Positions 547-44,360 of a stretch of DNA of 64,000 bases are shown one piece after another; within the stretch, counting starts at the first letter, position 1, and each line of letters begins with the position of its first letter. Origin of the DNA: a virus. The DNA is taken from the IMG/VR virus record IMGVR_UViG_3300045999_010033, positions 1 through 64,000 of that record; one strand, written 5' to 3'. Under the pieces are notes generated by a model. It had not been told where the DNA came from. It was given only the letters and a program-made list of their open reading frames with translations, and made no database searches. Made by a program: the position numbers and the translations under genes.

Positions 547-1194
547 TTAAGAATTTTTCCATTGAGAATTTTCTTGTCTGCAAGACATGTGATCGGCCCA
601 ATGAATAATGTATGGCAATTCGGTTTTCAATCTAAAATCTTCGTTGTATACTATAAAATATTTTTCATTTGCTTTATTATAAAGTCCATCTGCCAAAAAG
701 ATTCCGAGCATTTCTTTTTCTGTGTAAGAGATACCATACTTGTTTAGTAACCAAACTGCGCGATGGGTAACATCAAGATAATGCAGTTCTGGATTGTGTA
801 TAAAATATTCATTTTTCTTTCTTTGTGCCCATTCATCAGTTTGAGGCAAATAATTTGGGTTAACACCATCTCCCAACTTTCCTAAATCGTGATGTAGTGC
901 GGCAAAAAATAATTCTTCATCTGTAAAATCCACAAATCCACCACCATCTTCAAATAATTTTTTCATCTTAAAGGCGTTTTTCGCAACATTCATCACATGG
1001 TCTACATATCCACCGATATATGCATTGTGAAAGTGTAATTTACCACTCGCAGGTGCAACCGCCAACTCTTTTCCCAATTCGGATTCACTGTACATGAACA
1101 GCAATCGTTCCAATCTCTCACCTTTAAATACTTTTTTTACGAATCCTATAAATCCTTCGTATGCCTCTAATAACTCTTTTTCTGTTTTTTTCAT
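547..1194 (-). CDS. HD-domain phosphohydrolase
   Basis: H..H and 'ALHHDLGK' HD motif followed by conserved D; 215 aa. Confidence 0.55.
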   Translation of the reverse strand: MKKTEKELLEAYEGFIGFVKKVFKGERLERLLFMYSESELGKELAVAPASGKLHFHNAYIGGYVDHVMNVAKNAFKMKKLFEDGGGFVDFTDEELFFAALHHDLGKLGDGVNPNYLPQTDEWAQRKKNEYFIHNPELHYLDVTHRAVWLLNKYGISYTEKEMLGIFLADGLYNKANEKYFIVYNEDFRLKTELPYIIHWADHMSCRQENSQWKNS

Positions 1195-1244
1195 TTTATA
1201 ACTTTTTATAGTACAATATACAAAAAATTTTTGAAAAAACCAAA

Positions 1245-1568
1245 TTATTGATATAGCTCTTTTTTGGTAAGTATTTGGTAAATAATCTCCACTTCTTCTT
1301 CGGTAGTTAATGCTGGAAGATCATCATCAAACATAAAAATAGAATATACGTGATTTCCATCATCATCTATAAATTCACCATTTTCGGAAGACCACATATG
1401 TGGATAGTAATCATCTACCTTTAGAAAGTCCTCTTCGCTGGCATCGACTAATGGTATAATCCAATACCAATAGTTTTCGCCTGATTCATCATCCTTTACA
1501 TCTATTTTGAAGCACTTCCATTTTCTAAAACTTGCATCAGTTATTGGAGTTTGTGGGACGGTTATCAT
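1245..1568 (-). CDS. hypothetical protein
   Basis: ORF track; tiles with neighbours. Confidence 0.45.
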   Translation of the reverse strand: MITVPQTPITDASFRKWKCFKIDVKDDESGENYWYWIIPLVDASEEDFLKVDDYYPHMWSSENGEFIDDDGNHVYSIFMFDDDLPALTTEEEVEIIYQILTKKELYQ

Positions 1569-1571
1569 ACA

Positions 1572-1790
1572 TTACCATTTACCTAATGGACACCCCTTTT
1601 CTGCGGGAGTGAAAACTTTTGATTTTAAAACGCAGCCACATTCGGAACACACATACACGCCAACCGAATTTTTCTTTTTCTTTTCGCATTTATTACAAAT
1701 TTCTAAACGTTTGGCCGCCAATTCGTTTTGCTCATCATTTGGGCTTAATTGGATTGCCCATGATTTTAGTATTTCTTCTACTTTGTTCAT
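1572..1790 (-). CDS. zinc-ribbon protein
   Basis: CNKC...CSECGC cysteine pairs. Confidence 0.5.
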   Translation of the reverse strand: MNKVEEILKSWAIQLSPNDEQNELAAKRLEICNKCEKKKKNSVGVYVCSECGCVLKSKVFTPAEKGCPLGKW

Positions 1791-2092
1791 ACAACTTTTT
1801 GTTTAATTGATTGAATACGTGCACATATTTCAAACATTTCTAATTCTATAAATTTTTCTTGCAACCAGCTCAATAGTTCTTTGTAATCATTGCGATGTAC
1901 AACTATGTAAGCCGGCAATCCATGTATTTTCATTAAAACTAATTCCTTTGCCGATTTATTTTTATAAAACCTTTCTATGATATCAACTATGGAAACCAAT
2001 ACACCGAATGGAATAGTTTGACGCTCTTTCAAGAAATCCCAATTATACTTTATCCACGCTCCTTCAATTTTTTCTAAGGCTTTTATATTCAT
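1787..2092 (-). CDS. hypothetical protein
   Basis: ORF track; 4-nt overlap with downstream gene. Confidence 0.45.
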   Translation of the reverse strand: MNIKALEKIEGAWIKYNWDFLKERQTIPFGVLVSIVDIIERFYKNKSAKELVLMKIHGLPAYIVVHRNDYKELLSWLQEKFIELEMFEICARIQSIKQKVV

Positions 2093-2216
2093 AAATGACT
2101 TTTATACAATTCCAATATGGATTCGGACTAGACCAATTTGAATACCCTGTACTTGTTACATACCAATTCATAGTAACCTATTTTATATTAAATATTTGAA
2201 ATTAAAAATTATTTGT

Positions 2217-3044
2217 TTATCTTCTTATTCTACCCTTCATCACAAATACTCTGATATCGGAATCATCTTCGGCAATTGTAACTTTGCCGGACACCATTGA
2301 CTTTAATTTAGATTTTACGTTCTTAACGATATTTTTATCAATTATATTATTTCTATCCCGTTCCGCACCCCATATAACATCTATCAATTTTATATCATTT
2401 AATAATAGTTCATCCCAAGAATCAGGATTATCATCAAACCCAAAATTAAATGCATCTGCCAATTCACTTTTATTTTGTTCAGCAAACTTTTCAGCAAGCT
2501 GTATATACCTTTCTACATATTTTCTTAAAATTTCACCACGATTTTTAACATTCTTTTTAGATTTATCTGATGTGTAGTATTTAAATAGTTTAGCTCCGTT
2601 TATATCATCTAAAATAGATTTTAATTTACTATCCTGCTCAAGAAACTCCCACCAATCCAAAAAAACATTACCAATCAATGATGCCCAACGTCTACCCTGT
2701 TCATCTGGTTCGGACATTATATCATCATCGCCTTTAATTAATAAAGTACCCTCCAAATAAAACATAACGCCAGAGTTCCAAATACCGGGTATATCTACTC
2801 GCATAGATGCATTTGGTACGCGGGTCATACAACTTATAGACTTTTTAGTACCCTGAAGTGAGTCCAATTGGTCTAACTTTTTTATACTTGTAATGTGAAA
2901 CGCCCGAACACGTTTACCTTCATTCAATATTTTTGCAATCTTTGGTGTAAATGGAAATTTACGTGAATACGCAAATGTATATGCTTTCGATACCCACTTC
3001 ACATCGGTTACTGTCTCACTCAATAAATCTTTCAGTCTTATCAT
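2217..3044 (-). CDS. hypothetical protein
   Basis: 275-aa ORF on coding strand. Confidence 0.5.
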   Translation of the reverse strand: MIRLKDLLSETVTDVKWVSKAYTFAYSRKFPFTPKIAKILNEGKRVRAFHITSIKKLDQLDSLQGTKKSISCMTRVPNASMRVDIPGIWNSGVMFYLEGTLLIKGDDDIMSEPDEQGRRWASLIGNVFLDWWEFLEQDSKLKSILDDINGAKLFKYYTSDKSKKNVKNRGEILRKYVERYIQLAEKFAEQNKSELADAFNFGFDDNPDSWDELLLNDIKLIDVIWGAERDRNNIIDKNIVKNVKSKLKSMVSGKVTIAEDDSDIRVFVMKGRIRR

Positions 3045-3200
3045 ACAAATAAATATAAGGGGGTTGGGGGAATTAATTCGTCGTTAGGATTACAACATTT
3101 TTTCAAACCGATATATATCGTCTAAACCAATCCATCGGCACAATCACTATCCATCCTCGCCAAAGCAACCATGCCAACACAAGGATACAAATTAAGGCTC

Positions 3201-4235
3201 TCATCGGCGAAACAATTTACGCAATCCGCGGAATATAAGCCCAACCGGAGTAGTGAGGCCCAGAAAACGAATTGCAGTATTTGCAACACCAACCGCACGG
3301 TCCACAATAGTACGACGACCTCCCTCATCAACCGGAGAGGCAGGAGCAGTATCTTCGGCAGCCGGTGGGGTCGTATCCGAAGTAGAATCGGCAGCCCCAA
3401 TGGCGGTCACCACATCGGCACCGGCATTGCCACGTTCGGTTGGTCCACTATCCACTCCCGCAAGACGAGTTTCCTTGCGTACCCTTTGGCGATTCGGGTC
3501 GGGGCCTTGCGCCGGCGGTACTTCCGTAATGGCGGAAACAATCAGGTCGGATTCCCCAACACCTTCGGGTAGTACACCATCAAAGTAGATATCGCCAATA
3601 CGATTAAAATCTACACGTAGGTCGGCAAGACGTTCCGACACACGCTTAACTATTTCGGCAATTCCATTGTAATCAATCCTGCCACCCTCGGCCGGTGGAG
3701 CAATCTTTAATGTGGCGTAGGAGTAATCCGCACCCAATCCCAAATCCGATAACCTCCACCTGTCAGCGGGCCTTTCGGCAGATGGGCTAATAGTCCAATT
3801 TATTTGCTCCAGAATCCCCTTTGGCACCGGACCAGGGTCATCATACGACCAATCCACTTCCGTCACCCCAGCGGTACGGAGAACGAATTCCTGTTGGGCC
3901 GCAAGCCCTTGTAGACCTGAAACATCTACCTTTATGATTGGTACGGCATCACCCATAGGGGCAGCCAGTCCGGATACTGTCTTTACTTCGCCATTGCGGG
4001 TGTACCAATAGTGTGGGTCACCGCCCTCTCGCGCAGCAGAAAGACTCGCGAGTGTTTTCGGGCTAACAAGCAGCCGCCCCGCGCACTCCACAATAATTCC
4101 ATCTGCCTCCAATAGGGGTAGGAGTTCACGTTCCGGCGAAAGACCGATGGCAAGTGGGGTTACTGCCGGAGGATTGGCAGCCACGAGCACTTCATCACCT
4201 ACCCGGCTATACCTTTGTGGATTTTGCCTTATCAT
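3201..4235 (-). CDS. hypothetical protein encoded in GC-rich island
   Basis: 344-aa ORF; local GC visibly far above genome background; Ala/Gly/Pro-rich. Confidence 0.5.
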   Translation of the reverse strand: MIRQNPQRYSRVGDEVLVAANPPAVTPLAIGLSPERELLPLLEADGIIVECAGRLLVSPKTLASLSAAREGGDPHYWYTRNGEVKTVSGLAAPMGDAVPIIKVDVSGLQGLAAQQEFVLRTAGVTEVDWSYDDPGPVPKGILEQINWTISPSAERPADRWRLSDLGLGADYSYATLKIAPPAEGGRIDYNGIAEIVKRVSERLADLRVDFNRIGDIYFDGVLPEGVGESDLIVSAITEVPPAQGPDPNRQRVRKETRLAGVDSGPTERGNAGADVVTAIGAADSTSDTTPPAAEDTAPASPVDEGGRRTIVDRAVGVANTAIRFLGLTTPVGLIFRGLRKLFRR

Positions 4236-4461
4236 TTCTTAACCATTTTAATGTTTCTCGGTAGCGTGCAGTTTCGCCCTTCCGCCCCCACTCACCTGTC
4301 AATACCCTCCTTTGCATGGCTGGATACACACCCATATCAATGGCTTGTAGTATGTATCGGGTTGGGTCTTCTTTTATACGTAATCCGGACGGAATGAACG
4401 TCGCGAGGCCGACCGTGCACCCAAAGCCGTTTGCTATCTTCTTATATTCTTCTTCTCTCAT
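4207..4461 (-). CDS. hypothetical protein (GC-rich island)
   Basis: ORF track; overlaps neighbours by a few codons. Confidence 0.35.
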   Translation of the reverse strand: MREEEYKKIANGFGCTVGLATFIPSGLRIKEDPTRYILQAIDMGVYPAMQRRVLTGEWGRKGETARYRETLKWLRNDKAKSTKV

Positions 4462-4931
4462 CCTTTTAATTTCATTACCACTTCGTTACCACTAATCTTT
4501 GTTACGGCTTTGGGAAACGCCCTTTTGATATACTGTCCATATAGCCGGGTACGGCGGTCATCGGCAATCCACCGTATAGTATCCGGCGCCCCGTCCTTTC
4601 GAATTTCGTCACGTAGTATCGCAACTATCGTAGCCATTACCCGGTATAGTTCACCACGGTTTGTATCTCCATACCTACTCATCTTCGGGTCCCCTGCAGA
4701 AACCGTATCTATTCTGAAATCCACATACCACTCAACCGTATTCTTCACCTTCGATACGGTTTTACGTTTCAAGCTAATCGTCATCGTATATTGCACACCC
4801 GAATCGGTGGTAAACTCCCAATCCTTCATAGTGCCTCCCGAATACACCATATCGTACTCGTATGGTTTGGCCGAACCCTCTCCGGTCTCCCATAGTATTC
4901 TAATTGGTATCAATCCTTTAAGCCGTATCAT
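4458..4931 (-). CDS. hypothetical protein (GC-rich island)
   Basis: 157-aa ORF; moderately GC-rich. Confidence 0.5.
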   Translation of the reverse strand: MIRLKGLIPIRILWETGEGSAKPYEYDMVYSGGTMKDWEFTTDSGVQYTMTISLKRKTVSKVKNTVEWYVDFRIDTVSAGDPKMSRYGDTNRGELYRVMATIVAILRDEIRKDGAPDTIRWIADDRRTRLYGQYIKRAFPKAVTKISGNEVVMKLKG

Positions 4932-5139
4932 CCCTTGCGTTTTCTATAAATATCTTCCTTATAGGTTTTTTACTCCCCAAAAAAATTTTAGCCCGGATGG
5001 GGTGTGAGCCGAAAGGGAATAGAAGCCAAAAACCTTTTGTTTCAAAAAGTGTTTCCATATGGGAAAAAATTACCCGAAATATTTTCACCGATTAGGCCCG
5101 GTTTATATTTATATTTATTTTTCCAGTTACATGAAATTC

Positions 5140-5290
5140 GGTTCAAGTAAATATAAGGGGTGCAAATGAATATAAGTGTTAGATTTATATAAATTAAATA
5201 TAAGGGGTGCAAATGAATATAAGCGGTGCAAATGAATATAAGGGGTGAAAATAAATATAAAAATCGCAAGTGAAAATCGTGGGCATAAGA
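5140..5290. repeat. iteron-like direct repeat array (unit AAATATAAGGGGTGCAAATGAATATAAG, 3 copies plus degenerate copies)
   Basis: 28-nt unit perfectly repeated at about 5148 and 5196, third partial copy at 5224, further GGTGAAAAT/GTGAAAATCG degenerate copies. Confidence 0.7.
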
Positions 5291-5355
5291 ATACCGCCAG
5301 CGTATTATGCCGGCGGTTCATCCCTATATGGGAGCATGTTATATGTAGTAGGATA

Positions 5356-5574
5356 TCACATATCCTTAATCATGTCCAGATACATTTGGTTAAGCTCTCC
5401 AGTATCGGTATAACTATATTGTCGCATCATATCCCTTGCCGTATCCAATGCTTCGGGTTTGGGTGCCGTCTTACCTATGTTATACTCCTTCATCCATTCT
5501 GCTTCGGAAAGGGTGATATCTGGCTCTATCGTTCGCATTATATTTAATTTCGCTTTATTTGTATCCGATTTCAA
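5356..5574 (-). CDS. hypothetical protein
   Basis: ORF track. Confidence 0.4.
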   Translation of the reverse strand: MKSDTNKAKLNIMRTIEPDITLSEAEWMKEYNIGKTAPKPEALDTARDMMRQYSYTDTGELNQMYLDMIKDM

Positions 5575-6214
5575 TTGATTCGAAATTTATTTTGTTTATT
5601 AATATATTACTTCTGATTGCCTGCCTTTTGCATCTATTCCATTCGAAGAGAGAATATGAATAGCCTCTCTTACTTCGTCCAGTTCTTTTGAGGCCGTCCA
5701 TTTTGGCTTTCCGTCCTGCAATCTTTTTATCTTTCTCATTAGAACTACTTCTGCTTCCTTTAGCTTTTTTAGTGCGTAAGTCTCTGTTACCATCTGGCTT
5801 GCCATTTAGTTTATTCTTAATATAGTCCCAGCAAGCTGGTCCGTGCAATGATTCGTTTTGTCGTGCTTCTAATTCATAGGGATTACTTTCATAGTCCGCA
5901 TCAGGGTCGTATTTGGTCAATAGTGGTTGTAATTGGTGTGTCCATTCGTGAATACAAGTGCTTATTAGGTCTGCCACAGTATCGAATGTGTCCCAATAGA
6001 TGTAAATTTCATTATCTACTGGGTCATATTCACCGTGATAATGATAGTCCGAGTCCAAGTCTATGGACTTTTGTATGTACCATTTTGGTAAGTGTTTCTT
6101 TCTTTTGTTTGTTCCGAGTGTACGTCTGCACCAACGCAGGGCCATATTGGCAATACTTACTGCCTTTCGGCGGCCTATTTTATCTATTTTTGTGTTAAGA
6201 TAAATTTTAGGCAT
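5555..6214 (-). CDS. putative zinc metallopeptidase (HExxH, SprT-like)
   Basis: 'CIHEWTHQL' HExxH motif; basic C-terminal tail. Confidence 0.5.
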   Translation of the reverse strand: MPKIYLNTKIDKIGRRKAVSIANMALRWCRRTLGTNKRKKHLPKWYIQKSIDLDSDYHYHGEYDPVDNEIYIYWDTFDTVADLISTCIHEWTHQLQPLLTKYDPDADYESNPYELEARQNESLHGPACWDYIKNKLNGKPDGNRDLRTKKAKGSRSSSNEKDKKIAGRKAKMDGLKRTGRSKRGYSYSLFEWNRCKRQAIRSNILINKINFESIEIGYK

Positions 6215-6337
6215 AACAAATATAAATTAAAAAGCGGCCGAACTAATAATATAGTCCGACCGCTTGTAGTAAATTGGACTGCCGTTATCGGAAGTAACAG
6301 CGTGTCCGTTGCCGGTCGATTAACGAGCGGGCTTTCA

Positions 6338-6498
6338 TCATTGTGCAATAGCGCCGGCAGGTAGAATGGTGTCAACTACAACTGAGTCTGTACCAGTGGT
6401 GTCCATTACTACTACTGCCGTGTCGGTTGCGGTTACGGCTTCACTTGATTGACCACATGATACGAAGGTCATAGATGCTACTGCGAAGATTGCGAAGA
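6338..6498 (-). CDS. small secreted lipoprotein (about 58 aa, below ORF-track cutoff)
   Basis: Manual translation MKTIFAIFAVASMTFVSCGQ...; signal peptide with lipobox-like FVSC. Confidence 0.4.
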
Positions 6499-6574
6499 TT
6501 GTTTTCATTTTCTTTCTTTTTTTTTTGTTTGTTAAATGTTTATAAATATACTAAAATTATTCCGATATTCCAAA

Positions 6575-6769
6575 TTAATGTTCTGCCCTATTATAGAATA
6601 GCCGTGGCTCATCGGGCGTAAGGGCCATTGCTTTGTTTCGTTGCATTTTATCGAGGAATGCTACCGCTTCATCCAGATCCATATCTACTGTCACCGGCTG
6701 ATTTGTATCTACTGCGGTGATTGTACAGCGTCCTTTTGAGTCTTGCTTAATATAAAATAGTGTATCCAT
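6575..6769 (-). CDS. hypothetical protein
   Basis: ORF track. Confidence 0.45.
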   Translation of the reverse strand: MDTLFYIKQDSKGRCTITAVDTNQPVTVDMDLDEAVAFLDKMQRNKAMALTPDEPRLFYNRAEH

Positions 6770-6772
6770 AGT

Positions 6773-7159
6773 TTAGGCTTTTGCGGGGTTTGCATTGTTA
6801 TCAATCCAATCTTCAACGTCAGCTCTTACTTGGTCAATAACATCATCAAACGAATAGTCGATACTATCTATTTCGATTTGCCTATCGTACCCCATACTCA
6901 ACTCAACTTCTGCCTCTCTTCTAAGGTCTATACGATTAAATTCATCATGCATAACACCAACCAATACATTCAAGAACGCTCCGCGTTTAAACGTTATCAG
7001 CCGATTGTCCTCATCATCTGGTGTTTCTTCTACTACATCTGCGATTTCATCTACCGCCGGCAGATCATCAATACCGTTGATAATCTTCACTACATCTTCC
7101 CGCGTAAAGATAGATGCGGGGCTTACATTTACTAATTCAATTGCGTTTTGCTTTGTCAT
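6773..7159 (-). CDS. hypothetical acidic protein
   Basis: D/E-rich 128-aa ORF. Confidence 0.5.
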   Translation of the reverse strand: MTKQNAIELVNVSPASIFTREDVVKIINGIDDLPAVDEIADVVEETPDDEDNRLITFKRGAFLNVLVGVMHDEFNRIDLRREAEVELSMGYDRQIEIDSIDYSFDDVIDQVRADVEDWIDNNANPAKA

Positions 7160-7237
7160 TGTTATATTTGTTTTATTTATTAAATTGGTTGCTCATTATA
7201 CCAATAATCATATTCATCATTCCACATTTATTCTAAT

Positions 7238-7483
7238 TTAGTCAGATTCGAACTGCATAGCAACGCCCGCCCAATACTGATGCCCTTCCGGTGTTTTGGC
7301 CCATGTGAACGATTCATTGATAAACGAATAGAACGAATTAAAATCACGATTTAAGTATTCCGATATGATATGGGGTTGGCCATAATCATCCGGCTTTGAC
7401 GATTCCGTTTCACTCAATCGTTTCAGAAACAATACTTGCAGTTTATATGGTATCATCTTCAACCATTCTAGTCCTTTCTTCAT
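7238..7483 (-). CDS. TPEGHxYW-family small protein (paralog 1 of 7)
   Basis: Shares WL..LPYKLQVLFLK...GF.W..TPEGH.YW with six tandem neighbours. Confidence 0.55.
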   Translation of the reverse strand: MKKGLEWLKMIPYKLQVLFLKRLSETESSKPDDYGQPHIISEYLNRDFNSFYSFINESFTWAKTPEGHQYWAGVAMQFESD

Positions 7484-7492
7484 ATCTTATAT

Positions 7493-7720
7493 TTATTTAT
7501 ATCTTTCATTCGCGATAAGACTCCAATAATCATGCCCTTCAGCTGTATCTGACCATGTAAACCCTCCACATATAAAATCATGAAACTCTGTAAATTCATA
7601 ATTTAAATATCCAGCGATGCTTTCCAGTCCGATGTACTTCCCGCATTCGGACAATCGTTTCAGAAACAATACTTGCAGTTTATATGGCATTGTTGCCAAC
7701 CATTCTACTCCGGTTTTCAT
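7493..7720 (-). CDS. TPEGHxYW-family small protein (paralog 2)
   Basis: Paralogy. Confidence 0.55.
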   Translation of the reverse strand: MKTGVEWLATMPYKLQVLFLKRLSECGKYIGLESIAGYLNYEFTEFHDFICGGFTWSDTAEGHDYWSLIANERYK

Positions 7721-7941
7721 ATCAATTGCGCATTATATATCTTATTCCAATATTCGTGTCCTTCCGGTGTATCACGCCATACAAACCCGGCATCTATAAA
7801 AGATTCAAACGTGTCAAAATCATAAGATAGAAAGGTAGCTATAGTCCCTTTATCTTTTGGTCGTTTGTGATTAACCCGATTCTTACAAAATAGGATTTGG
7901 TCCTCTTTACTTAATTTACCCAGCCATTCTACCGCTTTCAT
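7717..7941 (-). CDS. TPEGHxYW-family small protein (paralog 3)
   Basis: Paralogy. Confidence 0.55.
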   Translation of the reverse strand: MKAVEWLGKLSKEDQILFCKNRVNHKRPKDKGTIATFLSYDFDTFESFIDAGFVWRDTPEGHEYWNKIYNAQLI

Positions 7942-7950
7942 ATCTTATAT

Positions 7951-8190
7951 TTATTTATCTTTATGTGCAATCGTATCCCAATAATCGTGCCCTTCGGGGG
8001 TATCTTCCCACATAAATGCATGGTCAATAAACTGACTAAACGAATCATATTCAAGAATCAGATATTGCGCGATTGTCAATCCGCGCTTTGTAACCTCTCC
8101 ACGATTTCTGTGGTTTACTCTATTCTTACAAAATAGGATTTGGTCTTCTTTACTTAATTTACTCAGCCATTCTACTCCTAGCTTTCTCAT
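7951..8190 (-). CDS. TPEGHxYW-family small protein (paralog 4)
   Basis: Paralogy. Confidence 0.55.
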   Translation of the reverse strand: MRKLGVEWLSKLSKEDQILFCKNRVNHRNRGEVTKRGLTIAQYLILEYDSFSQFIDHAFMWEDTPEGHDYWDTIAHKDK

Positions 8191-8409
8191 AATATATGTT
8201 TTTATACTTTAATTAATATCCACATTGTATTGTCAAAGTCCATTGCCGATTGAACCAACCGTAAGATAATATAATCGCTTTAGTATAAACACCAGTTTCC
8301 AAAAAATGGTCTGAATGATATACAAGCTGAATATACGGAAGGATGTGCCATTCATCTCGCTTCCACACCGGCCGGCGGTAACGGCTGAAGCTTATTATAA
8401 TACCATTTT

Positions 8410-8622
8410 TCATATTCTAAAGATTTCGGCAATATCAAACCAATAATCGCCTCCTTCCGGCGTTGACTCCCAAATGAAATTTCCACTAACAAATTCGCTT
8501 ACATTATCAAATTCGGATGAAAGAATATCGGATATAGTTTTTCCTTGTGAAGCACAGTTCTTCAAAAATTGAACTTGGACTTTATACGATAGCATCTTTA
8601 AACAATCTATACCTTTTATCAT
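8410..8622 (-). CDS. TPEGHxYW-family small protein (paralog 5)
   Basis: Paralogy. Confidence 0.55.
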   Translation of the reverse strand: MIKGIDCLKMLSYKVQVQFLKNCASQGKTISDILSSEFDNVSEFVSGNFIWESTPEGGDYWFDIAEIFRI

Positions 8623-8626
8623 TTTA

Positions 8627-8848
8627 TTAACTATTTAATTTTTGATATTTGCTATGCATTCTAACCCAATATAGATGTCCTTCCGGTGTATCATTCCATC
8701 CGAATCCAGCAATTATAAAATGCGCCACATCATCAAACCCATATAGCAATTTATCCGATATATTGATATCTTGATTGGCCATATTTTTTAATATCTGAAC
8801 TTGCATCTTATATGGTAACTGCAGCAAACAATCTATTCCCTTCATCAT
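8627..8848 (-). CDS. TPEGHxYW-family small protein (paralog 6)
   Basis: Paralogy. Confidence 0.55.
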   Translation of the reverse strand: MMKGIDCLLQLPYKMQVQILKNMANQDINISDKLLYGFDDVAHFIIAGFGWNDTPEGHLYWVRMHSKYQKLNS

Positions 8849-9099
8849 TATATTCGGTATTTTGATAGTATATCACTCCAATATTGTCGGCCTTCGGGTG
8901 TGCTATTCCAAACGAATCCACGCTTCATAAAGACTTCAAAACTTCGACATTTACTTTGCAAAAAGAAAGAAATGGATCCGACATTATCAAGATTTTTTAA
9001 ATACTTAACCTGTACCGCATATGGTAATTTATTCAGATAATATAATCCGTTTTTCATTTTATATTCATTTTGCAGTCGGAGCGGGACTCGAACCCGCAA
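8848..9099 (-). CDS. TPEGHxYW-family small protein (paralog 7)
   Basis: Paralogy; N-terminus may overlap the tRNA-like element. Confidence 0.45.
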   Translation of the reverse strand: MRVRVPLRLQNEYKMKNGLYYLNKLPYAVQVKYLKNLDNVGSISFFLQSKCRSFEVFMKRGFVWNSTPEGRQYWSDILSKYRI

Positions 9100-9160
9100 C
9101 GCTAAACCGTATAGGATGAGATGACCGTTTCCTCATTATAAGCTATCCGACCGACCAGCC
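9072..9160 (-). tRNA. tRNA-like gene (T-arm GCGGG-TTCGAGT-CCCGC and acceptor GGTCGGA/TCCGACT clear; anticodon arm not resolved)
   Basis: Canonical T-loop and 7-bp acceptor pairing on minus strand; about 80 nt; anticodon undetermined. Confidence 0.45.
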
Positions 9161-9162
9161 GA

Positions 9163-9606
9163 TTACTTCAGTAATCCGGCGATTGCTTTCACTTTATCCA
9201 ACTTACTCATTGAGCCGTTTTCGATTGTAGTGAGAGCCTGCCATACCTTAAATTCATTTTCATCGTATTCCGTTACACCGGCTTCATCCATCCAAGCGAT
9301 TACGGCGTTGGCCTCGTCGATTTGGGCTTGATGTTCGGCAATCTCCTTTTGGTAATCTTCCCTAGTGATACCTACTACTTTAGCGTCATATTCTTGGAGC
9401 CAATTACCCTGCCATAATCCATCAAGCGTCTCGGCCGTTAGTACCTTACCTTTAATGGTTTTAACACGATATTTTTCTCCGATGGTATAATTTGCAGATC
9501 CCTCATTTCCAGTTACTACGATAATATCTCCTACTTTTGGCTTCTTACTCATTTTTAATTTGATTTTTAAGTTGTATATAAATTGTTTAATCCGATTTCG
9601 TTTCAT
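9163..9606 (-). CDS. paralogous protein family B, member 1 (conserved C-terminus IAWMDE.GV.EYDENEFKVWQALTTIEN.SMSKLDKVKAIAGLLK)
   Basis: Three tandem paralogs share the C-terminal 60 aa. Confidence 0.55.
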   Translation of the reverse strand: MKRNRIKQFIYNLKIKLKMSKKPKVGDIIVVTGNEGSANYTIGEKYRVKTIKGKVLTAETLDGLWQGNWLQEYDAKVVGITREDYQKEIAEHQAQIDEANAVIAWMDEAGVTEYDENEFKVWQALTTIENGSMSKLDKVKAIAGLLK

Positions 9607-9613
9607 AATTCGA

Positions 9614-10036
9614 TTATTTCAAGAGAGCGGCGATGGCCCTTACCTTGTCCATCTTACTCATTGATTCATTTTCAATTGTAGTAAGTGTCTGCCAAACCTT
9701 ATGTTCGTTTTCATCATACACATCCGTACCGGTCTCGTCCATCCAAGCAATAATGGATTGATTGTGCTCAATATCAGTTTTGAGTTTGCTAATCCTTCCG
9801 GTCAGCGTTTGGATTTCGGATTCGATTGCGGCTTTATCTACGGTGCCTGGATCACAATCTTTGTACTTCAGATTATTACCTTTCCATACTCCATCCAAGT
9901 CTCCGGCCATAAATGTGGTGGCGCCGGTATGGGCTAGGACTCGATACCTTTTACCAATAGTATAACTGTGTGAGTTTGAATTAGCCTTTACAAGTACAAT
10001 GTCTCCGACCTGAGGAAGTGCTTTTAACCTTGCCAT
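9614..10036 (-). CDS. paralogous protein family B, member 2
   Basis: Paralogy. Confidence 0.55.
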   Translation of the reverse strand: MARLKALPQVGDIVLVKANSNSHSYTIGKRYRVLAHTGATTFMAGDLDGVWKGNNLKYKDCDPGTVDKAAIESEIQTLTGRISKLKTDIEHNQSIIAWMDETGTDVYDENEHKVWQTLTTIENESMSKMDKVRAIAALLK

Positions 10037-10088
10037 ATTTGTTTTGTTTTATTTATTTAAGTTTTTGTTTTTAATTATAAGAATAGAA

Positions 10089-10487
10089 TTAACCCTTAAT
10101 CATTTGAGCAATTCGTTTCACTTTGTCAATCTTGCTGATATTCTCATCTTCCATAGCCGTCAGCACCTGCCATACCTTAAATTCATCTTCATTGAACACA
10201 TCGGAGCCGGTCATCGACATCCACGCAAGCATACTATGCCTATCTTCAATGAGTGCCTGTGCTTCGGAAATATCCTTCAAAAGTTCATCTTTGGTCATCT
10301 CCCAAATCTCTACCTGCGAAAACTTCAACCATCCACTCTCTGTTCCCGGTACAGCTGCCAATTCAGCTTTCAGAGTATTATCCGACCTATCTATACGTGT
10401 AATACTATATTTTATATCTTTACGATATCCATCCACGGTTGCGATAACTCTAATACATGCTCCGATTTTAACTTGGTCTGCTTTCAT
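10089..10487 (-). CDS. paralogous protein family B, member 3
   Basis: Paralogy. Confidence 0.55.
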   Translation of the reverse strand: MKADQVKIGACIRVIATVDGYRKDIKYSITRIDRSDNTLKAELAAVPGTESGWLKFSQVEIWEMTKDELLKDISEAQALIEDRHSMLAWMSMTGSDVFNEDEFKVWQVLTAMEDENISKIDKVKRIAQMIKG

Positions 10488-10622
10488 TTTATTTGTTTTT
10501 TGTTTGTTTTTATTTATTAGTTTTGCTCCTTATTCTCTTACCCTTTTATTTCGGAGCTGGCCTGCTTATCCTCGCCCTTTCGGACTGATACGAGTTTCTC
10601 AAGGGCACAGGTAGTTTTATAT

Positions 10623-11210
10623 TTACTCACTATCCGAGTACATAACTTTAGATTCCTTACGGTCGGACTTCGGGCCCAATTCAACATCGGCCAATTCAGC
10701 GGATGCCATTATATCGGCAGTTCCCCGCACTACATCACGCATACCAACGGGAGCGTGTCCTTTGCCGGCGATTGCTTTCACTTCACTAACCAGCTTATCT
10801 GCTTTACGAATGAAGTCACGGGCGGTTTCATCTGAAATAAACATACGCGGTTTATCAACACCCGGTCCAGTCACTTCATACAATTCATAGAAGTCCTTAC
10901 CACCAATATCCGCCGGCAAGTTCAATTCACGAACTACCTTTGTGATTTTGTAACCACGCGGAAGGCGAGAACTTACTGCTTTGGCCGTCGGCTTCTTAAC
11001 CGCCGGCTTTTTAGTGGCCGGCTTTTTAGTAGCAGCCTTTTTAGTTGCCGGTTTCTTAGCCGTAGCATTTTTAGTGGCCGCCTTCTTAGCCGCCGGCTTG
11101 ACCGCCTTCTTCGTAGCAGCCTTTTTAGTGGCCGTCTTTTTGGCCGCAGGTTTGGTAGCCTTCTTTGTAGCGGGCTTTTTAGTAGTCGTTTTTTTCACTG
11201 CTTTACTCAT
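10623..11210 (-). CDS. histone H1-like Lys/Ala-rich DNA-binding protein
   Basis: N-terminal 80 aa of (K)KPA(A/T)KKA repeats; encoded by tandem 15-nt DNA repeats at 10980-11200. Confidence 0.6.
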   Translation of the reverse strand: MSKAVKKTTTKKPATKKATKPAAKKTATKKAATKKAVKPAAKKAATKNATAKKPATKKAATKKPATKKPAVKKPTAKAVSSRLPRGYKITKVVRELNLPADIGGKDFYELYEVTGPGVDKPRMFISDETARDFIRKADKLVSEVKAIAGKGHAPVGMRDVVRGTADIMASAELADVELGPKSDRKESKVMYSDSE

Positions 11211-11227
11211 AGTAACTTTTTTATTTA

Positions 11228-11542
11228 TTAATCCATAGGAGATACCTTCGCTTCACCATCTAATGCTGCTTCATATCCTTCACGCCAAGAGATATCTTTT
11301 TCTTCCCAAATAGCATCAACCAATTCAATCATTTTCTCATCTTCAAGCTCCAATGAATAAAGCAAATCGGAAGTTTCTTTACTTACGTGCAGTATTCCAC
11401 CATCATCATCGGATTCGCCGGCACCATCGTTATATGCCTCATCCAATAGGGAATCAACGAGAATCATTACTTGTTCGGTTTCCTCACCAGTGAAACGTTG
11501 TCCAATAACCGTCTGCAATACATCGTACTTTTTACTATCCAT
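11228..11542 (-). CDS. hypothetical acidic protein
   Basis: ORF track. Confidence 0.5.
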   Translation of the reverse strand: MDSKKYDVLQTVIGQRFTGEETEQVMILVDSLLDEAYNDGAGESDDDGGILHVSKETSDLLYSLELEDEKMIELVDAIWEEKDISWREGYEAALDGEAKVSPMD

Positions 11543-12069
11543 TTTATTTGTTTTTATTTGTTTTCGTTTTTTCTGAAATCACCATACATTCCGACGAGTA
11601 TGATTGTCGGAATTATTATCACCCACCATTTCCAATTCATTACGGTGATGTTAGCAATGCTCATAGATGAGCCGAGCCATATGGACCATCCATACCTTTT
11701 AAGAAACTCTATCATTTATTTATTTTTTATTTCGTTATCAATATCTTCGAATGTAATGTCTTCATCCGCCGGCCGGAAGGTAGCAATCCATAACAGCCCC
11801 ATAAACACCGCTGGTAAAATTAGTTCACTCATTATTTTCTATTAATTCGGTTAGAGATAGCAATCAGTAAGAGGACGATTAGAAACAGAAGAAAGTTAGT
11901 CATATAGATTTATATTTGTTTTTATTAATCGGCCCAACCATCGTATTTGATGTGGGGAATTTCGGTAGCTTTCACTCTGCGAATCTTGCGGTTACGCATC
12001 TTTTTATACCACTTACCACTACGTTTAGTATTACCGTGTTTAGAAATTTGTTCAGCTTTTATTGCCATA

Positions 12070-12264
12070 TTATATTACGATTATTGTATCTTCAGCTTCA
12101 CTTTGTCCAAGCAGATAACCTGCTTTGAATCCTTTAACGAATGCCTCATAGGATATGATGCCATCATCTATTCGTTTGAATATCTCAAGCGCTTTCAGCT
12201 CTATGATATCATCACGCTTTGTGTTTCGTATGTACGTTTGTTTTTTTGATTTATCTTCACTCAT
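12070..12264 (-). CDS. hypothetical protein
   Basis: ORF track. Confidence 0.4.
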   Translation of the reverse strand: MSEDKSKKQTYIRNTKRDDIIELKALEIFKRIDDGIISYEAFVKGFKAGYLLGQSEAEDTIIVI

Positions 12265-12283
12265 ATGTTTTTATTTTTATTTG

Positions 12284-12376
12284 TAGTCAGGACAGGATTC
12301 GAACCTGTACAAAGTTATTTACTATTACCTTTGCCAGCTCGGATGCTGGTGTGTCTACCTATTTCACCACCTGACC
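12284..12376 (-). tRNA. class-II tRNA-like element (acceptor GGTCAGG/CCTGACT, D-arm, long V-arm, T-arm ACAGG-TTCGAAT-CCTGT; anticodon loop non-canonical 6 or 8 nt)
   Basis: Manual fold; one of three related copies (also 51344 and 52019). Confidence 0.5.
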
Positions 12377-12387
12377 GAACCATCCGA

Positions 12388-12765
12388 TTAGTTATCGGAG
12401 AAATCAATTCCACCGAGGATGCTATCCCCGTCGTTCATACGTGCAATCTTCTCTTTGGCATTCACACGCATTTGTTTCATAACTTCACGAAGTGACCCGC
12501 CATCTGTCATTTCATTAACACGTTCCCACGCGGCATCAATCTTCATTTGAAGAAACTCGCGAAGCGGTTTGTTTTGTGGTTCATCGTTGAGCTCCTCAAT
12601 GAAGTCCTCAAGTGATGCAACCGTTGCCATCCGAAGAGCGAGCGATTCCGTGCTATCCGGCGAATCGGCTGTAATAACGTTAGCGAGTACCATCGCCAGC
12701 TTTACACGTTGCTCATCCATTTCATTAATCAATCCCAGAATTCCACCAATGTTTTCGATATTCAT
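12388..12765 (-). CDS. hypothetical protein
   Basis: ORF track. Confidence 0.5.
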   Translation of the reverse strand: MNIENIGGILGLINEMDEQRVKLAMVLANVITADSPDSTESLALRMATVASLEDFIEELNDEPQNKPLREFLQMKIDAAWERVNEMTDGGSLREVMKQMRVNAKEKIARMNDGDSILGGIDFSDN

Positions 12766-12767
12766 AA

Positions 12768-13094
12768 TTAACCGTTTAATTTAGGTTTAAGTGTATTTAT
12801 TAATTCAGTTTCGATTCGGTGTGCTTCGGCTTTACCACGTACCACCTGAAGTACGTTCACTTCATATACTACATTCTCCTCGCCATCCCAACGTCTCATA
12901 TCACGATACAACGGCCAGTCCTTTTCCCATTCGATGCGGGCCCGGCTCACATGCTTATGGAAACGATTGATGGCTGACCATTTGAATGCCCTACCTTTAG
13001 CGACTGTAATACCAATGTATTGTTTGTTATTAATCGTATTGGTGATAAGGTATATCACGTGGTTTCTATCACTTCGTTTCTTCCTCATGCTCAT
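12768..13094 (-). CDS. GIY-YIG nuclease family protein
   Basis: 'VIYLITN...KQYIGIT' GIY-YIG signature near N-terminus; 108 aa. Confidence 0.6.
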   Translation of the reverse strand: MSMRKKRSDRNHVIYLITNTINNKQYIGITVAKGRAFKWSAINRFHKHVSRARIEWEKDWPLYRDMRRWDGEENVVYEVNVLQVVRGKAEAHRIETELINTLKPKLNG

Positions 13095-13279
13095 CCTAAT
13101 TTGATTTGTTTAGCTATCCACATCTTCCGATGAATCTTTCCGAACTTTGAACGTTCCGGCATATGTTTCAATCGACGGAAGTAGTAGTGTTTTCTTTCGC
13201 CCGTGTCGTATCGGGCACCGTTCCAATATTTACTCATAGTTACCTCGCATAGAACGCTACCCATTCTGCTTGTTTCCAA
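13091..13279 (-). CDS. hypothetical protein
   Basis: ORF track. Confidence 0.35.
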   Translation of the reverse strand: METSRMGSVLCEVTMSKYWNGARYDTGERKHYYFRRLKHMPERSKFGKIHRKMWIAKQIKLG

Positions 13280-13482
13280 GGGATATCATTTTGAGTACCT
13301 GCTCTCCATCCTGCACCTAATACCGATTTACGATTGGAGTGCCTCCCACGGATTTGGACGGCGGTTACACCATGCTCACGCTTCAACATTTCGCGGAACT
13401 CATTGATACCCTTCACATCATACATCGGAAAGGAACACAAATACTTTGAGGAACGATTCGGAATGTTTTTTGGAATATTCAT
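13240..13482 (-). CDS. hypothetical protein
   Basis: ORF track; overlaps previous ORF. Confidence 0.35.
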   Translation of the reverse strand: MNIPKNIPNRSSKYLCSFPMYDVKGINEFREMLKREHGVTAVQIRGRHSNRKSVLGAGWRAGTQNDIPWKQAEWVAFYAR

Positions 13483-13499
13483 ATATTATTTTTATATTG

Positions 13500-13736
13500 T
13501 TATTGATTACCACCTAACCACACCATAACACCAGCGTACATCTCAGCCCTCTGAAGTTCTTTCAAAACAAGGCGAGGAAGCCGTTTACGTTTCCACTTCC
13601 ATCTGAATCGGAACGCTTTAGTCCTTCGGAGTGCTTCAGCGGGTTGTTCATTCTCCACACATTCCCATACGGCCATAAGCTCTAACCACATTTGTTCGTT
13701 GGTATTCATATTTACTTTTTTAAAGGTTATCTTCAC
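13500..13736 (-). CDS. hypothetical protein
   Basis: ORF track. Confidence 0.4.
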   Translation of the reverse strand: MKITFKKVNMNTNEQMWLELMAVWECVENEQPAEALRRTKAFRFRWKWKRKRLPRLVLKELQRAEMYAGVMVWLGGNQ

Positions 13737-13951
13737 GCAGTAGCGGCGAGTGCCCTTTTAGCGGCGAGGAACGTTTTGGCCAGAGCCGTTTGATTCTTTA
13801 CGAATGTTTTGGCATCTTTCATAGATACGAAACGTTTAACAACTCCCTTAGCCACTTTCACTTCGTACACCCAATAACGATCGGGTACAAAGTTATTATC
13901 TGCGAGGCGGAGAGTGCGGATGGCTTTCTTAATATTCATTTTCGTGCTCAT
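13733..13951 (-). CDS. hypothetical basic protein
   Basis: ORF track. Confidence 0.4.
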   Translation of the reverse strand: MSTKMNIKKAIRTLRLADNNFVPDRYWVYEVKVAKGVVKRFVSMKDAKTFVKNQTALAKTFLAAKRALAATA

Positions 13952-14010
13952 AATCAGGAATTAATAATGTTATATAATAGTAATAGTAATAGAGAAAGAA
14001 AGGGAGTGGA

Positions 14011-14421
14011 TTAGATGTTAGCGATAATCCAATCGGCCTGAGCCTTATTCCGAACGTTGAAAAGTTCCTTCAAACCTTTACGAATTTCGGAATGGAATTT
14101 TTTCGGAATCACACCCATTTTAGTCGGGAACTCACGAATGAAGTCACGCATACCCAGTTCCTCATCACGGAACATATCAAAGAATTTGCGAGCCTTCACA
14201 ATCTCGCTCTTAGATTTACATTCGATTGTGGTTACACGGCCATTCCAATGTTTGAACGTAACCGTGGCGGATATCTTACCGCCCTTACGCTGCGGAATTT
14301 TTGAACCCGCGAAGTTTTTAACCGGATTAGCAGCGGCCCTCTCAAGGATAGAAGGCGAAGAAGTGGATAAGCGGAAATCTTGGAATTGTAACGTACCTTT
14401 CATATTAGAGTTTTTTATCAT
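14011..14421 (-). CDS. hypothetical protein (downstream of conserved promoter repeat copy A)
   Basis: ORF track; conserved upstream repeat at 14430-14570. Confidence 0.5.
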   Translation of the reverse strand: MIKNSNMKGTLQFQDFRLSTSSPSILERAAANPVKNFAGSKIPQRKGGKISATVTFKHWNGRVTTIECKSKSEIVKARKFFDMFRDEELGMRDFIREFPTKMGVIPKKFHSEIRKGLKELFNVRNKAQADWIIANI

Positions 14422-14429
14422 ATCACCAC

Positions 14430-14570
14430 CTCATTTGGGGATACTCCCCAAAGTTAAGGCTTATTTTTCATACTACAATGGGCTTTTTGATAAAAGTTTT
14501 CGAAATTTTTCGGGGTTTTGTTAGAAATTATCTAATGCCCCTTGATAATCAACGGCTTATGCTTCCCTGA
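14430..14570 (-). promoter_or_regulatory. conserved upstream repeat copy A (TAACTTTG -7-like element, GTTAGAAATTATCTAA and TTGATAATCAACG palindromes)
   Basis: About 130 nt conserved with 32505-32662 and 48945-49100, each immediately upstream of a minus-strand gene start. Confidence 0.6.
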
Positions 14571-14988
14571 ATATCAATGACTTACAAGGTTTTTTATAAC
14601 CAATTGATCCTCAATCTCTTATGTATGGTATCCATATAGTATAGATAAAGTATTCAATATCAACGCTTTGCGATTTTTGTTAGATATTTTCTAACTCAAC
14701 ACGATGTTTCATTGAATATTTTCTAACATTATATCCAAATCATTAAATATTTTCTAAACGGCCCATCCATTCACTTCGGCCGGTATGTATTCCTTTATAT
14801 TCATTTTGTGGCATGGCCTTATATTCATTTTTCATGTGAGGCAATCCCTTATATTTATTTTTTTTCAGCGATGGCGACGTGGGTGGGATTTTGGCTACAT
14901 ATCCCCTATCCTTTGATACCATAATTGTTTTATCTACGATTATGGAATATCACATTCGTTTTGATAGAGATGATTCGTTTTAACATGG

Positions 14989-15282
14989 TTATAGGAGTCT
15001 ATCCAATATCCCCTTAATACCTTCAGGTGTTATTTCGGATAGTTTCAATATAAATGTACGCGAAGGTATCACGTATCCATCTTTACTTGCCACTTCCATT
15101 TCGTACATAGAACCCCCATCCGCGGAGATTCTGCTCATCGCTATGTTCAACCAAACCCCGCTACTACCATGATATGCTGATATCCATTGGTATCGGTTAG
15201 GAGTTATTGTAAGTGTGGGTAGGGGAATGCCGATGGTATCATGTAGTATTAACTTATGTGGGTTATTTATAGTTAGTCTCAT
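14989..15282 (-). CDS. LTI-N-family paralog (family C, 1 of 11)
   Basis: N-terminal M..LTINN.HKL motif shared by 11 tandem genes. Confidence 0.5.
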   Translation of the reverse strand: MRLTINNPHKLILHDTIGIPLPTLTITPNRYQWISAYHGSSGVWLNIAMSRISADGGSMYEMEVASKDGYVIPSRTFILKLSEITPEGIKGILDRLL

Positions 15283-15392
15283 ATAATTGGGGGAGTATCT
15301 TGTATGTGTATTATATTATATGGGAGAGTATTCTTTTCTTATTACTACTACTATTACTATATAGATTGGAGGGGTTATTAATAGAATTATTA

Positions 15393-15950
15393 TTAGTGTA
15401 TTCCGAATCGCTGCTGCCAATAAGGTCGTAACACATTCAGCCCTATCGTATGTTCTAATGTATGCGTTGAGAATGCCGTCATTATATGCGATTTGAATGG
15501 AAGGGGTAGGGCATAGTTAGATGTTGGGTCCAGTTTCGGAATGTATCCATCATCGCTCATCAGTAGATACAGTTCCGATATCAGGGGTAACGGAGTGTCC
15601 AAATGGTGTAGCGGCATATTCCATTCCTTATAAACAGAAGTATGTGGTTGAGCCGCACCGTTGTGTATTCGGTGATGGGAAATGGATAGTCCTGCATAAC
15701 GTGTTCCATCGGAGTAGTAGAATGGTTCTCTGTTCATGTAAAGTTTATACATTACAACAGTTCCAGCTGCGGTTGGTTCGGATTCGAATATTATTATGTA
15801 ATATTGAGCGGCATCGGATTCGTATATCTTTAGATTGACTACCGGTCCTAATATTACATTTATTATGTGTCCTAGTTTATCTATATTATGTATTGTCAAT
15901 CTATTACTCATAAGTTTTTTTATTAGTGTATTCCGAATTGATTTTACCAA
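15393..15950 (-). CDS. family C paralog 2
   Basis: Paralogy (..LTIHNIDKL). Confidence 0.5.
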   Translation of the reverse strand: MVKSIRNTLIKKLMSNRLTIHNIDKLGHIINVILGPVVNLKIYESDAAQYYIIIFESEPTAAGTVVMYKLYMNREPFYYSDGTRYAGLSISHHRIHNGAAQPHTSVYKEWNMPLHHLDTPLPLISELYLLMSDDGYIPKLDPTSNYALPLPFKSHIMTAFSTHTLEHTIGLNVLRPYWQQRFGIH

Positions 15951-21343: not shown

Positions 21344-21364
21344 TTACGTTTTAGTATAAATATC

Positions 21365-42769: not shown

Positions 42770-42828
42770 ACAACACGTTTTTACATTGTTACAAAGTTTT
42801 AAATTTTACATAATACAAATACTAATAG

Positions 42829-42910
42829 TACCCCGAATCGGACTCGAACCGATACGCCTTTCGGCACCGCATCCTAAGTGCGGCGTGACTGCCAATTCCA
42901 CCACCAGGGC
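42829..42910 (-). tRNA. tRNA-Leu(TAG)
   Basis: Manual fold: AC stem CCGCA/TGCGG, loop CTTAGGA, long V-arm, T-arm ATCGG-TTCGAGT-CCGAT. Confidence 0.7.
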
Positions 42911-43006
42911 AATTAAGCGGAGAGTGATGGTAACGATCCATCTTGAGTTTTACCCCAGCCTCGGTTTAGCAAACCGGCCCCTTACCTTTCGGGCAACTCT
43001 CCATTG

Positions 43007-43087
43007 TACCTCGAATCGGACTCGAACCGATACGTCTTTCGACACTTGATTTTGAGTCAAGCATGTCTACCATTCCATCACCAAGGC
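43007..43087 (-). tRNA. tRNA-Leu(CAA)
   Basis: AC stem CTTGA/TCAAG, loop CTCAAAA, long V-arm. Confidence 0.7.
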
Positions 43088-43198
43088 GAATCCTGCTCTT
43101 TTATCTACAACTTAATGTAGTCGAACATCCAACACTATAACATACGTTTTATAGTTGCTACCATTGGAGGCAGGCAGAATTGAATCTATGTTCACTGC

Positions 43199-43357: not shown

Positions 43358-43364
43358 ATCTATG

Positions 43365-43447: not shown

Positions 43448-43455
43448 ATTATAAG

Positions 43456-43814: not shown

Positions 43815-43820
43815 AGTTAG

Positions 43821-44323: not shown

Positions 44324-44360
44324 AGTTTGTTTTCTCCTATATGTCAAAGAACGATAATCG

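Follow-up and report, generated by a model that had tools for sequence, protein, structure and literature searches.

Two arrays of a short repeat in the genome of a large tailed phage, array A with six copies and array B with three, together with a single inverted copy beside array A, are interpreted here, at a probability of roughly 45%, as clusters of binding sites for one putative lineage-specific protein that would recognize double-stranded DNA and would probably be regulatory. The observations behind this interpretation are the repeats themselves, the contrast between their cores and their spacers, their restriction to one lineage, their two orientations, and their genomic context, all of which can be read directly from the sequences compared.

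The window (the whole stretch of DNA analysed, 64,000 nt) derives from a large tailed phage with a genome of approximately 221 kb; a protein (P0103) identical (100%) to the 136-aa protein encoded in the window was found on a contig of 221,095 nt. It contains 24 tRNA genes, a tmRNA gene, and a GOLLD RNA, and it encodes NAMPT, PRPP synthetase, two RNA ligases, and one DNA ligase, a set whose closest cultured relatives are in T4-like phages; a nucleotide search against cultured phages returned no match. All genes of the window lie on the minus strand. Canonical Bacteroidota promoters (TTG-N17-21-TAnnTTTG) occur ten times on this coding strand, and the contig of one relative was binned within a Bacteroidia MAG, which makes a host from the Bacteroidota very probable. 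The GOLLD RNA is full-length (RF02032, 296.6 bits against a cut-off of 150; 55991-56405, minus strand) and lies inside the tRNA cluster (tRNAs at 42828-57657), adjoined by the tmRNA gene (57659-57994, minus strand), which encodes the tag peptide GNTYANAEYAVAA. Directly 5' of the tmRNA gene is a copy of the T4 late-promoter consensus TATAAATA (57996-58003, minus strand), a motif mildly enriched in the window (19 occurrences versus 11 expected; 12 on the coding strand).

Array A is located in a 424-nt gap (4932-5355) between two minus-strand genes, a 72-aa gene on the upstream side (5356-5574) and the first gene of a GC-rich cassette on the other (4458-4931), and an earlier note on this DNA was thus right to call the repeats non-coding. 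The 28-mer that it had singled out, AAATATAAGGGGTGCAAATGAATATAAG, is a real repeat with two exact copies (5149-5176 and 5196-5223), although these start 47 nt apart rather than the 48 nt given there. The 18-mer GGTGCAAATGAATATAAG has three exact copies (5159, 5206, and 5225); allowing up to three mismatches, it has five matches in 5140-5261 and one elsewhere in the 64 kb, with 0.16 expected, an enrichment that none of 100 shuffles reached. TRF reports a period of 19 nt at 5197-5260 (3.4 copies, 91% matches, score 107), and the presence of a repeat array far beyond chance is confirmed.

The predicted functional unit is not the 28-mer but a 13-nt core, YTTATATYYAYTT, on the coding (minus) strand. 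The six direct cores of array A (Table 1) start 19, 19, 19, 28, and 19 nt apart and are separated by five spacers of 6, 6, 6, 15, and 6 nt, those of 6 nt being G+C-rich; the distances between units show no helical phasing and are not multiples of 3. The motifs GGTGAAAAT and GTGAAAATCG, described previously as degenerate units, proved to be of two kinds: 5244-5252 is indeed a degenerate sixth unit, but 5270-5279 falls in a separate block, CGATTTTCACTTGC on the minus strand, which is kept in the closer relatives (the window group, L002, and L025). Read along the coding strand, the upstream gene stops at 5356 and is followed by two hairpins, a U-rich tail, a short block that is conserved, the six units, a near-palindrome designated Box A, an AT-rich run that includes the inverted core, a second conserved box (Box B), a less conserved stretch, GATATTTATAG, and the ATG. 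The inverted core and the direct array are thus on opposite sides of Box A.

Table 1. Repeats and associated elements of the control regions (window coordinates unless a contig is named)
Feature	Position	Strand	Remarks
Two hairpins	5293..5333	-	TCCC/GGGA, 5333-5321; ACCGCCGGC/GCTGGCGGT, 5317-5293; just after the stop codon of the upstream gene
Array A, six direct cores YTTATATYYAYTT	5145..5261	-	5261-5249, 5242-5230, 5223-5211, 5204-5192, 5176-5164, 5157-5145
Box A, ATTTCATGTAAC	5126..5137	-	Family consensus GTTwCATGwAAC, near-palindrome
Inverted core, single (TTTATATTTATTT on the plus strand)	5108..5120	+	Inside the AT-rich run 5100-5125
Box B, CCGGGCCTAATCGGTGAAAATATTTCGGGTAATTTTTTCCC	5061..5101	-	Family consensus CGGGTCGGATACGTGCGAATACCGGGGTC..TTTTTTCCC
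ATATTTATA element	4945..4953	-	13 nt upstream of the ATG at 4931
Single core CTTATATTTATTT	3047..3059	-	Ends 2 nt before the ATG (3044) of the 275-aa gene
Array B, three cores	14794..14860	+	Opposite to array A; starts 14794, 14818, 14848; spacing 24 and 30 nt
ATATTTATA sites, window	4945-4953, 6541-6549, 21355-21363, 57155-57163, 59741-59749, 61780-61788	-	
ATATTTATA sites, flanks	L119 3629; L121 3246, 10471		

Six related versions of array A were found, each with four to seven cores and with spacers of 0-34 nt that differ in both sequence and length. Three sequences with 97.5% DNA identity to the window (L001, L004, and L005) lack exactly one 19-nt unit relative to it. L002, in which the neighbouring protein is 61% identical, has seven units at spacings of 19, 28, 21, 17, 17, and 17 nt, and L025 has at least four, adjoining an assembly gap. 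L022 and L024, retrieved via the conserved terminator sequence, have six and five units, respectively (spacers 0, 3, 6, 0, and 8 nt). By lineage, the spacing is 19 or 28 nt in the window, 17-28 nt in L002, and 13-21 nt in L022 and L024. Core positions 2-7, 10, and 12 are invariant across the 19 array-A units of the scoring matrix, and position 1 is either C or T. Because the spacers share neither sequence nor length while the core is kept, the apparent 19-nt iteron represents a recent local duplication of the 13-mer with its spacer, and selection acts on the 13-mer, which is clearly under purifying selection. The inverted core is present in L002, L004, and L024 and absent from L022. The public metagenome contig of L024 (OGVX01000221.1) terminates in Illumina adapter (6016-6062; AGATCGGAAGAGCGTCGTGTAGGGAAAGAGTGT), and the last bases there are therefore an artefact.

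The array is spanned by an open reading frame of 75 aa in the window and of 85 aa in L024, which we considered as a small protein and rejected. The frame is interrupted by a stop in L002, and the repeat spacings of 13-28 nt place successive units in different reading frames, indicating that conservation is at the level of nucleotides and not of protein.

The 13-mer is confined to this lineage: more distant relatives lack it, though they keep the skeleton of the surrounding control region. IMG/VR was searched with the exact 18-mer and with the paired core, and the matches belonged to the same phage lineage only, 15 other paired-core matches being unrelated (AT-rich or coding). A paired-core scan of GTDB gave 16 matches, one of which was a true relative (a Bacteroidia MAG contig), the others being unrelated or, for L110, unresolved.

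The control region that contains array A is about 200-350 nt long and is common to dozens of phage contigs of 220-250 kb (4932-5340 in the window; L027, L031, and L035-L096). The family of the upstream protein, which carries an HExxH motif, has about 100 members; 63 further loci were retrieved, some on contigs of up to 251 kb, and a homologous non-coding skeleton is present in at least 31 of them, in addition to L027 and L031. In order, this skeleton consists of a covarying terminator and, after it, UUCUUUGUGCUC; a variable position that we call slot X; Box A and Box B, with a spacer between them that also varies; and Box C and ATATTTATA, close to the ATG of the next gene, which usually begins M(I)(K/R)LK(E/D)LL. 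Only in the sub-lineage of the window is slot X filled by the 13-mer array and the spacer between the first two boxes by the inverted copy; in other lineages both places hold unrelated sequence or other repeats.

The second hairpin of the gap and the U-rich tail that follows it (ATTCTTATGCCC, 5292-5281) look like an intrinsic terminator, and the terminator stem covaries, with 28 cells changed on both sides versus 14.4 in shuffles (none of 500 as high). Box A occurs once in the window, is a perfect palindrome (GTTACATGTAAC) in L070, and is a candidate operator for a dimeric protein. Box B, which reads CCGGGCC...GGTGAAAATATTTCGGGTAATTTTTTCCC on the coding strand of the window, is conserved in sequence, with no RNA pairing supported. 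Box C combines TTTTGAYAT with a small covarying hairpin whose loop is TTGAC. A structured RNA was also considered for the region and rejected. Rfam gave no match in the window region or in nine relatives, control region included, and RNAalifold recovered only the terminator and two small hairpins (4 and 5 bp), which indicates that the boxes are conserved as sequence and points to DNA recognition by proteins. Single-sequence folds have z-scores of -2.8 and -3.2, arising largely from the terminator and from pairing between direct and inverted cores.

The last element of the skeleton, ATATTTATA, lies just 5' of the ATG in most aligned family members, and its copy in the control region is a candidate phage-specific promoter element for the downstream genes. 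Nine coding-strand sites were found in the window and its flanks (Table 1), eight of them 7-32 nt upstream of an ATG; within the window the motif occurs six times on the coding strand versus twice on the other. It may be a phage-specific promoter element in general, possibly a late one. One copy precedes the baseplate (gp25) module.

The cassette downstream of array A (3050-4930) comprises three genes (157, 84, and 344 aa) with 48-52% GC, compared with about 35% for the genome; none of their products matched a database entry. L002 and L025 carry this cassette as well, while in L022 only a homologue of the 84-aa gene follows the array, and distant relatives carry other genes at this place. The 157-aa gene (first codons at 4915-4931) and the 275-aa gene that follows the cassette (3028-3044), both on the minus strand, share their first codons, MIRLK(G/D)L, and in L002 the corresponding 5' ends (3129-3150 and 5516-5540) match at about 17 of 18 nt. 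Such similarity suggests that recombination at the 5' ends of genes may have exchanged the cassette.

On the other side of the gap, a 219-aa open reading frame (5555-6214, minus strand) appears to be an HExxH (zincin-like) protein of about 140 aa whose frame runs on; judging by weak PDB matches to selecase and SPRTN (E >= 0.17), the protein has the fold of a small metalloprotease (zincin-like). Overlapping it in another frame is a 68-aa open reading frame (5599-5805, minus strand) that relatives keep as a separate gene of 64-69 aa (MEVAIAKLKDAEVVLMNKIKR...). Searches of Pfam, PHROG, and PDB sequences gave no significant match for the neighbouring proteins, and no recognizable DNA-binding domain was found among the neighbouring genes. 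Further upstream are seven tandem paralogous genes of 70-83 aa with the signature '...W..TPEGH.YW' (7238-9099, minus strand), and a coding region with tandem repeats of 15, 27, 30, and 54 nt (10989-11195). The homologue of the latter gene in L024 (1280-1807) encodes a Lys/Ala-rich, histone-H1-like repeat protein (TATKKAVKK...) that could be a DNA-binding protein.

Across the window, the core has 12 sites at up to one mismatch, against 0.73 expected, and a position-weight scan finds 19 sites, against about 2 in shuffles. No further core site was found in 20 kb scanned past the ends of the window, and the 13-mer is limited to three loci within 84 kb of genome. The single core at the far side of the GC-rich cassette is kept in L002, L004, and L025, and another single copy lies 7 nt before the ATG at 59733. 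Three core-like matches on the plus strand (7486, 7944, and 9058) were set aside as probably unrelated; they lie at gene junctions and resemble the A-rich motif AATATAA, which is frequent ahead of start codons (upstream regions, 16 versus 3).

Array B lies approximately 320-380 nt upstream of an early promoter of host type (14478-14449), adjoining three TTAGAAAATATnTAA repeats. Among relatives of the gene downstream of array B, L098 and L099 (77% protein identity) have four to five copies of the core at this locus, with spacings of 24, 35, and 36 nt; on the ground of these spacings we rejected a coding 'NEYK' repeat, a reading that the 24- and 30-nt spacing of the window had allowed. L100 has one scoring copy and one or two weaker ones seen by eye. 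In the distant L101 (51% identity) a different repeat, CCTAACCGAA, is present in four to five copies at the position of array B. The TTAGAAAATATnTAA repeats (14675-14757, between array B and the early promoter) have a palindromic core and a spacing of about 32 nt; a fourth, related copy lies near the promoter, and the repeats, which are operator-like, are kept in L098, L100, and L101.

From these data we infer both the binding of a protein and an effect on transcription. The putative binding protein would be encoded by either phage or host and would occupy sites within two large intergenic control regions: array A, which follows the terminator of the gene group formed by the HExxH, 68-aa, and 72-aa genes, flanks the operator-like Box A, and lies upstream of ATATTTATA; and array B, upstream of an early host-type promoter that bears other operator-like repeats. 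Several bound molecules would then, most plausibly, tune transcription of the adjacent units, whether by repression, by activation, or by forming a boundary. The idea of protein-binding repeats is upheld by cores that persist in every unit, even beside a neighbouring protein of only 61% identity, among spacers that change freely. An RNA element or a one-way promoter would account less well than recognition of double-stranded DNA for cores that point both with and against transcription, and the limitation of the core to one lineage, with replacement by CCTAACCGAA in L101, is the pattern expected of sites that co-evolve with their protein. The terminator, Box A, Boxes B and C, and ATATTTATA together make the context a regulatory one. 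Two features fit less well: array A is about 210-330 nt from the next start codon and array B about as far from its promoter as given above, which is far for classical operators, and sites without helical phasing speak against proteins that bind cooperatively along one face of the helix. The data on core and spacer, orientation, and context also fit origin iterons or other assemblies of DNA and protein.

An origin is what the earlier note had in mind when it read the array as binding sites for replication initiators or regulators and as a candidate origin or partition site. Putative protein-binding repeats in AT-rich non-coding DNA are what we find, while an origin or a partition site gains no support. 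In such a scheme arrays A and B would be iterons bound by a phage initiator, the AT-rich run 5100-5125 would unwind, and the 9.6 kb between the arrays might be likened to the separation of P4 ori and crr or of accessory iteron clusters in plasmids. Several points speak for it: the direct repeats keep their core and lie in AT-rich DNA that is non-coding, the motif forms another cluster at a second locus, and its copy number varies and it is replaced in another lineage, as is seen with plasmid iterons. Cumulative GC skew, however, is monotonic over the window, with no switch of polarity; its sole deviation is a blip of 500 nt (5000-5499) that coincides with the array-bearing stretch, where the plus strand is G-rich. 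The genes on both sides are co-directional, all on the minus strand, and no neighbour resembling a Rep protein, a helicase loader, or DnaA was found, the matches to DnaD_N (E = 0.085) and to the RADX OB-fold (21 bits, cut-off 33) being below threshold. The RADX match, to the 136-aa protein, for which no relative was found in IMG/VR, was not upheld by structure either: the AlphaFold model of this protein (pLDDT 69, low confidence) is a beta-hairpin with helices and not an OB fold. By inspection, the core agrees with the DnaA-box consensus TTATCCACA at 6 of 9 positions, two central ones differing; the AT content of the region is unexceptional and not among the highest of the window; and the spacing of 13-28 nt is unphased, as against the 21-22 bp or so of two helical turns. 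As for partition, no ParA/ParB, ParM/ParR, or TubZ/TubR was found among the ten proteins encoded in 547-7159 and the five beside array B (13733-15950). The origins of T4 (oriE) and P4 (ori/crr) carry short iterons, and origins of the T4/P4 type leave no skew signature; we therefore retain an origin as an unlikely but live interpretation. The repeats could instead be tandem promoter elements, each with a -10-like TATATT read by a phage-modified RNA polymerase, array A driving sense transcription of the downstream cassette and array B antisense transcription. The core and ATATTTATA do have ATATTTAT in common, ATATTTATA lies 7-32 nt before eight start codons, the ATGs at 3044 and 59733 are preceded by single cores at distances of 2 and 7 nt, and array A starts directly after a terminator in a region (4932-5355) in which no TTG-N17-21-TAnnTTTG promoter was found, as against ten elsewhere on the minus strand. 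We nevertheless judge such promoters decidedly unlikely: array B and the copy at 5108-5120 are oriented against every gene of the region; positions 2-3 (TT) and 12 (T) do not vary among the 19 array units, whereas ATATTTATA varies at the equivalent of the former and has A at that of the latter; units that adjoin directly, as some do, could not each have an initiation region of their own; and 84 kb of genome hold no further copies. Promoters of the host sigma-A type were rejected. In the Bacteroidota these consist of a -33 TTTG and, 17-21 nt downstream of it, a -7 TAnnTTTG in which T-12 and A-11 are invariant (PMC6847099), an A-11 that the core lacks; the units read TTCATTTG, with T in place of A-11, and the 19-nt period sets the preceding TTTG only 11 nt upstream.

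Recombination without any binding function deserves consideration because cores of one orientation stand on either side of the 50%-GC cassette (5145-5261 and 3047-3059), the gene that opens the cassette and the one that follows it begin alike (MIRLK...), the gene content downstream of the array differs among relatives, and shuffling mediated by PeSLs is documented in T4-type phages (PMC2839356, PMC4122927). The motif and the shared 5' gene ends would then simply mark joints of cassette swaps, those of the GC-rich island included. One or two copies would suffice for that, leaving five to seven conserved cores with free spacers unexplained; no cassette variation was seen at array B; and a PeSL is defined by an early host-type promoter, of which the region has none, all of which makes the explanation very unlikely. 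Replication slippage of an AT-rich unit into a functionless minisatellite would account for strains of 97.5% identity that differ by exactly one unit and for the perfect 19-nt units, which suggest recent duplication. It is hard to reconcile with cores kept across lineages whose flanking proteins are at most 61% identical and whose spacers have wholly turned over, or with independent arrays at two loci that are both kept in relatives, and we regard neutrality as highly improbable. A last interpretation, which we hold to be rather improbable, is that the two inverted arrays, Box A, and Boxes B and C constitute an undescribed cis-acting system of phages of 220-250 kb; this could be, for example, a two-part origin (P4 ori plus a crr-like element) or a boundary or looping pair to which a new phage protein would bind and which would delimit the 9.6-kb early gene block. 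If so, the motif would co-evolve with its binding protein, as the replacement by CCTAACCGAA suggests.

The preferred interpretation, clusters of sites for one regulatory protein, bears on a group of phages in which regulation and the control of replication are essentially undescribed, namely the uncultured jumbo phages, here probably of Bacteroidota. The 13-mer (probe unit CTTATATTCATTT) could be used as bait for its putative binding protein and would be a natural target for the engineering of such phages. As operators, the arrays would define a new regulator together with its set of target sites; as origins, they would be the first to be mapped for this group of phages.

The array is a fresh example of a familiar type of element, and its 13-bp core refines the repeat first reported. 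Like the iterons of plasmids and phages (lambda ori, P1 incC/incA, P4 ori/crr, and T4 oriE), it consists of several short direct motifs in AT-rich non-coding DNA, with a second cluster elsewhere in the opposite orientation, a variable copy number, and a lineage-specific motif; it differs in that its core is only 13 bp, its units are irregularly spaced (13-28 nt) where iterons repeat at about two helical turns, and no adjacent initiator gene, DnaA box, or change of skew was found. The bacterial transposon Tn7 (TnsB sites) and phage Mu (L1-3/R1-3) have mutually inverted arrays, one tight and one loose, much as arrays A and B bracket a 9.6-kb segment. No transposase is encoded between arrays A and B, where only small open reading frames (up to 219 aa) were found in 5262-14793, and both the bracketed genes and the two intergenic regions are syntenic in relatives without the motif, which shows that the segment is not an insertion.

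The PeSLs of T4-type phages (PMC2839356, PMC4122927) resemble the region around array A: in both, regulatory sequence comes after a conserved stem-loop terminator at the edge of a block of variable genes, the phage being a large one that has T4-like accessory genes, and here too repeats flank a variable cassette. PeSLs lack tandem 13-mers, however, whereas the array region has no host-type early promoter after its stem-loop, and the skeleton of the control region occurs once in the window instead of being dispersed (Box A once, the 13-mer at three loci in 84 kb). PeSL-like cassettes with early promoters do occur elsewhere in the window (49145-48961, 42313-42155, 38025-37864, 32756-32521, and 14742-14422, minus strand); each has CATTGATnATCAATG-type palindromes, a TTAGATAATTTCTAACAAAA..CCCCAAAAATTTCGAAAAC block, and a Bacteroidota promoter, TTG-N19-TAACTTTG. 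The operator arrays of phage repressors and regulators differ from the arrays described here, whose core is not palindromic, is present in up to seven copies, and lies 200-380 nt from the nearest start codon or promoter; what the two share is a clustered motif in both orientations, placed in intergenic regions that contain promoters and adjoined by a palindromic box.
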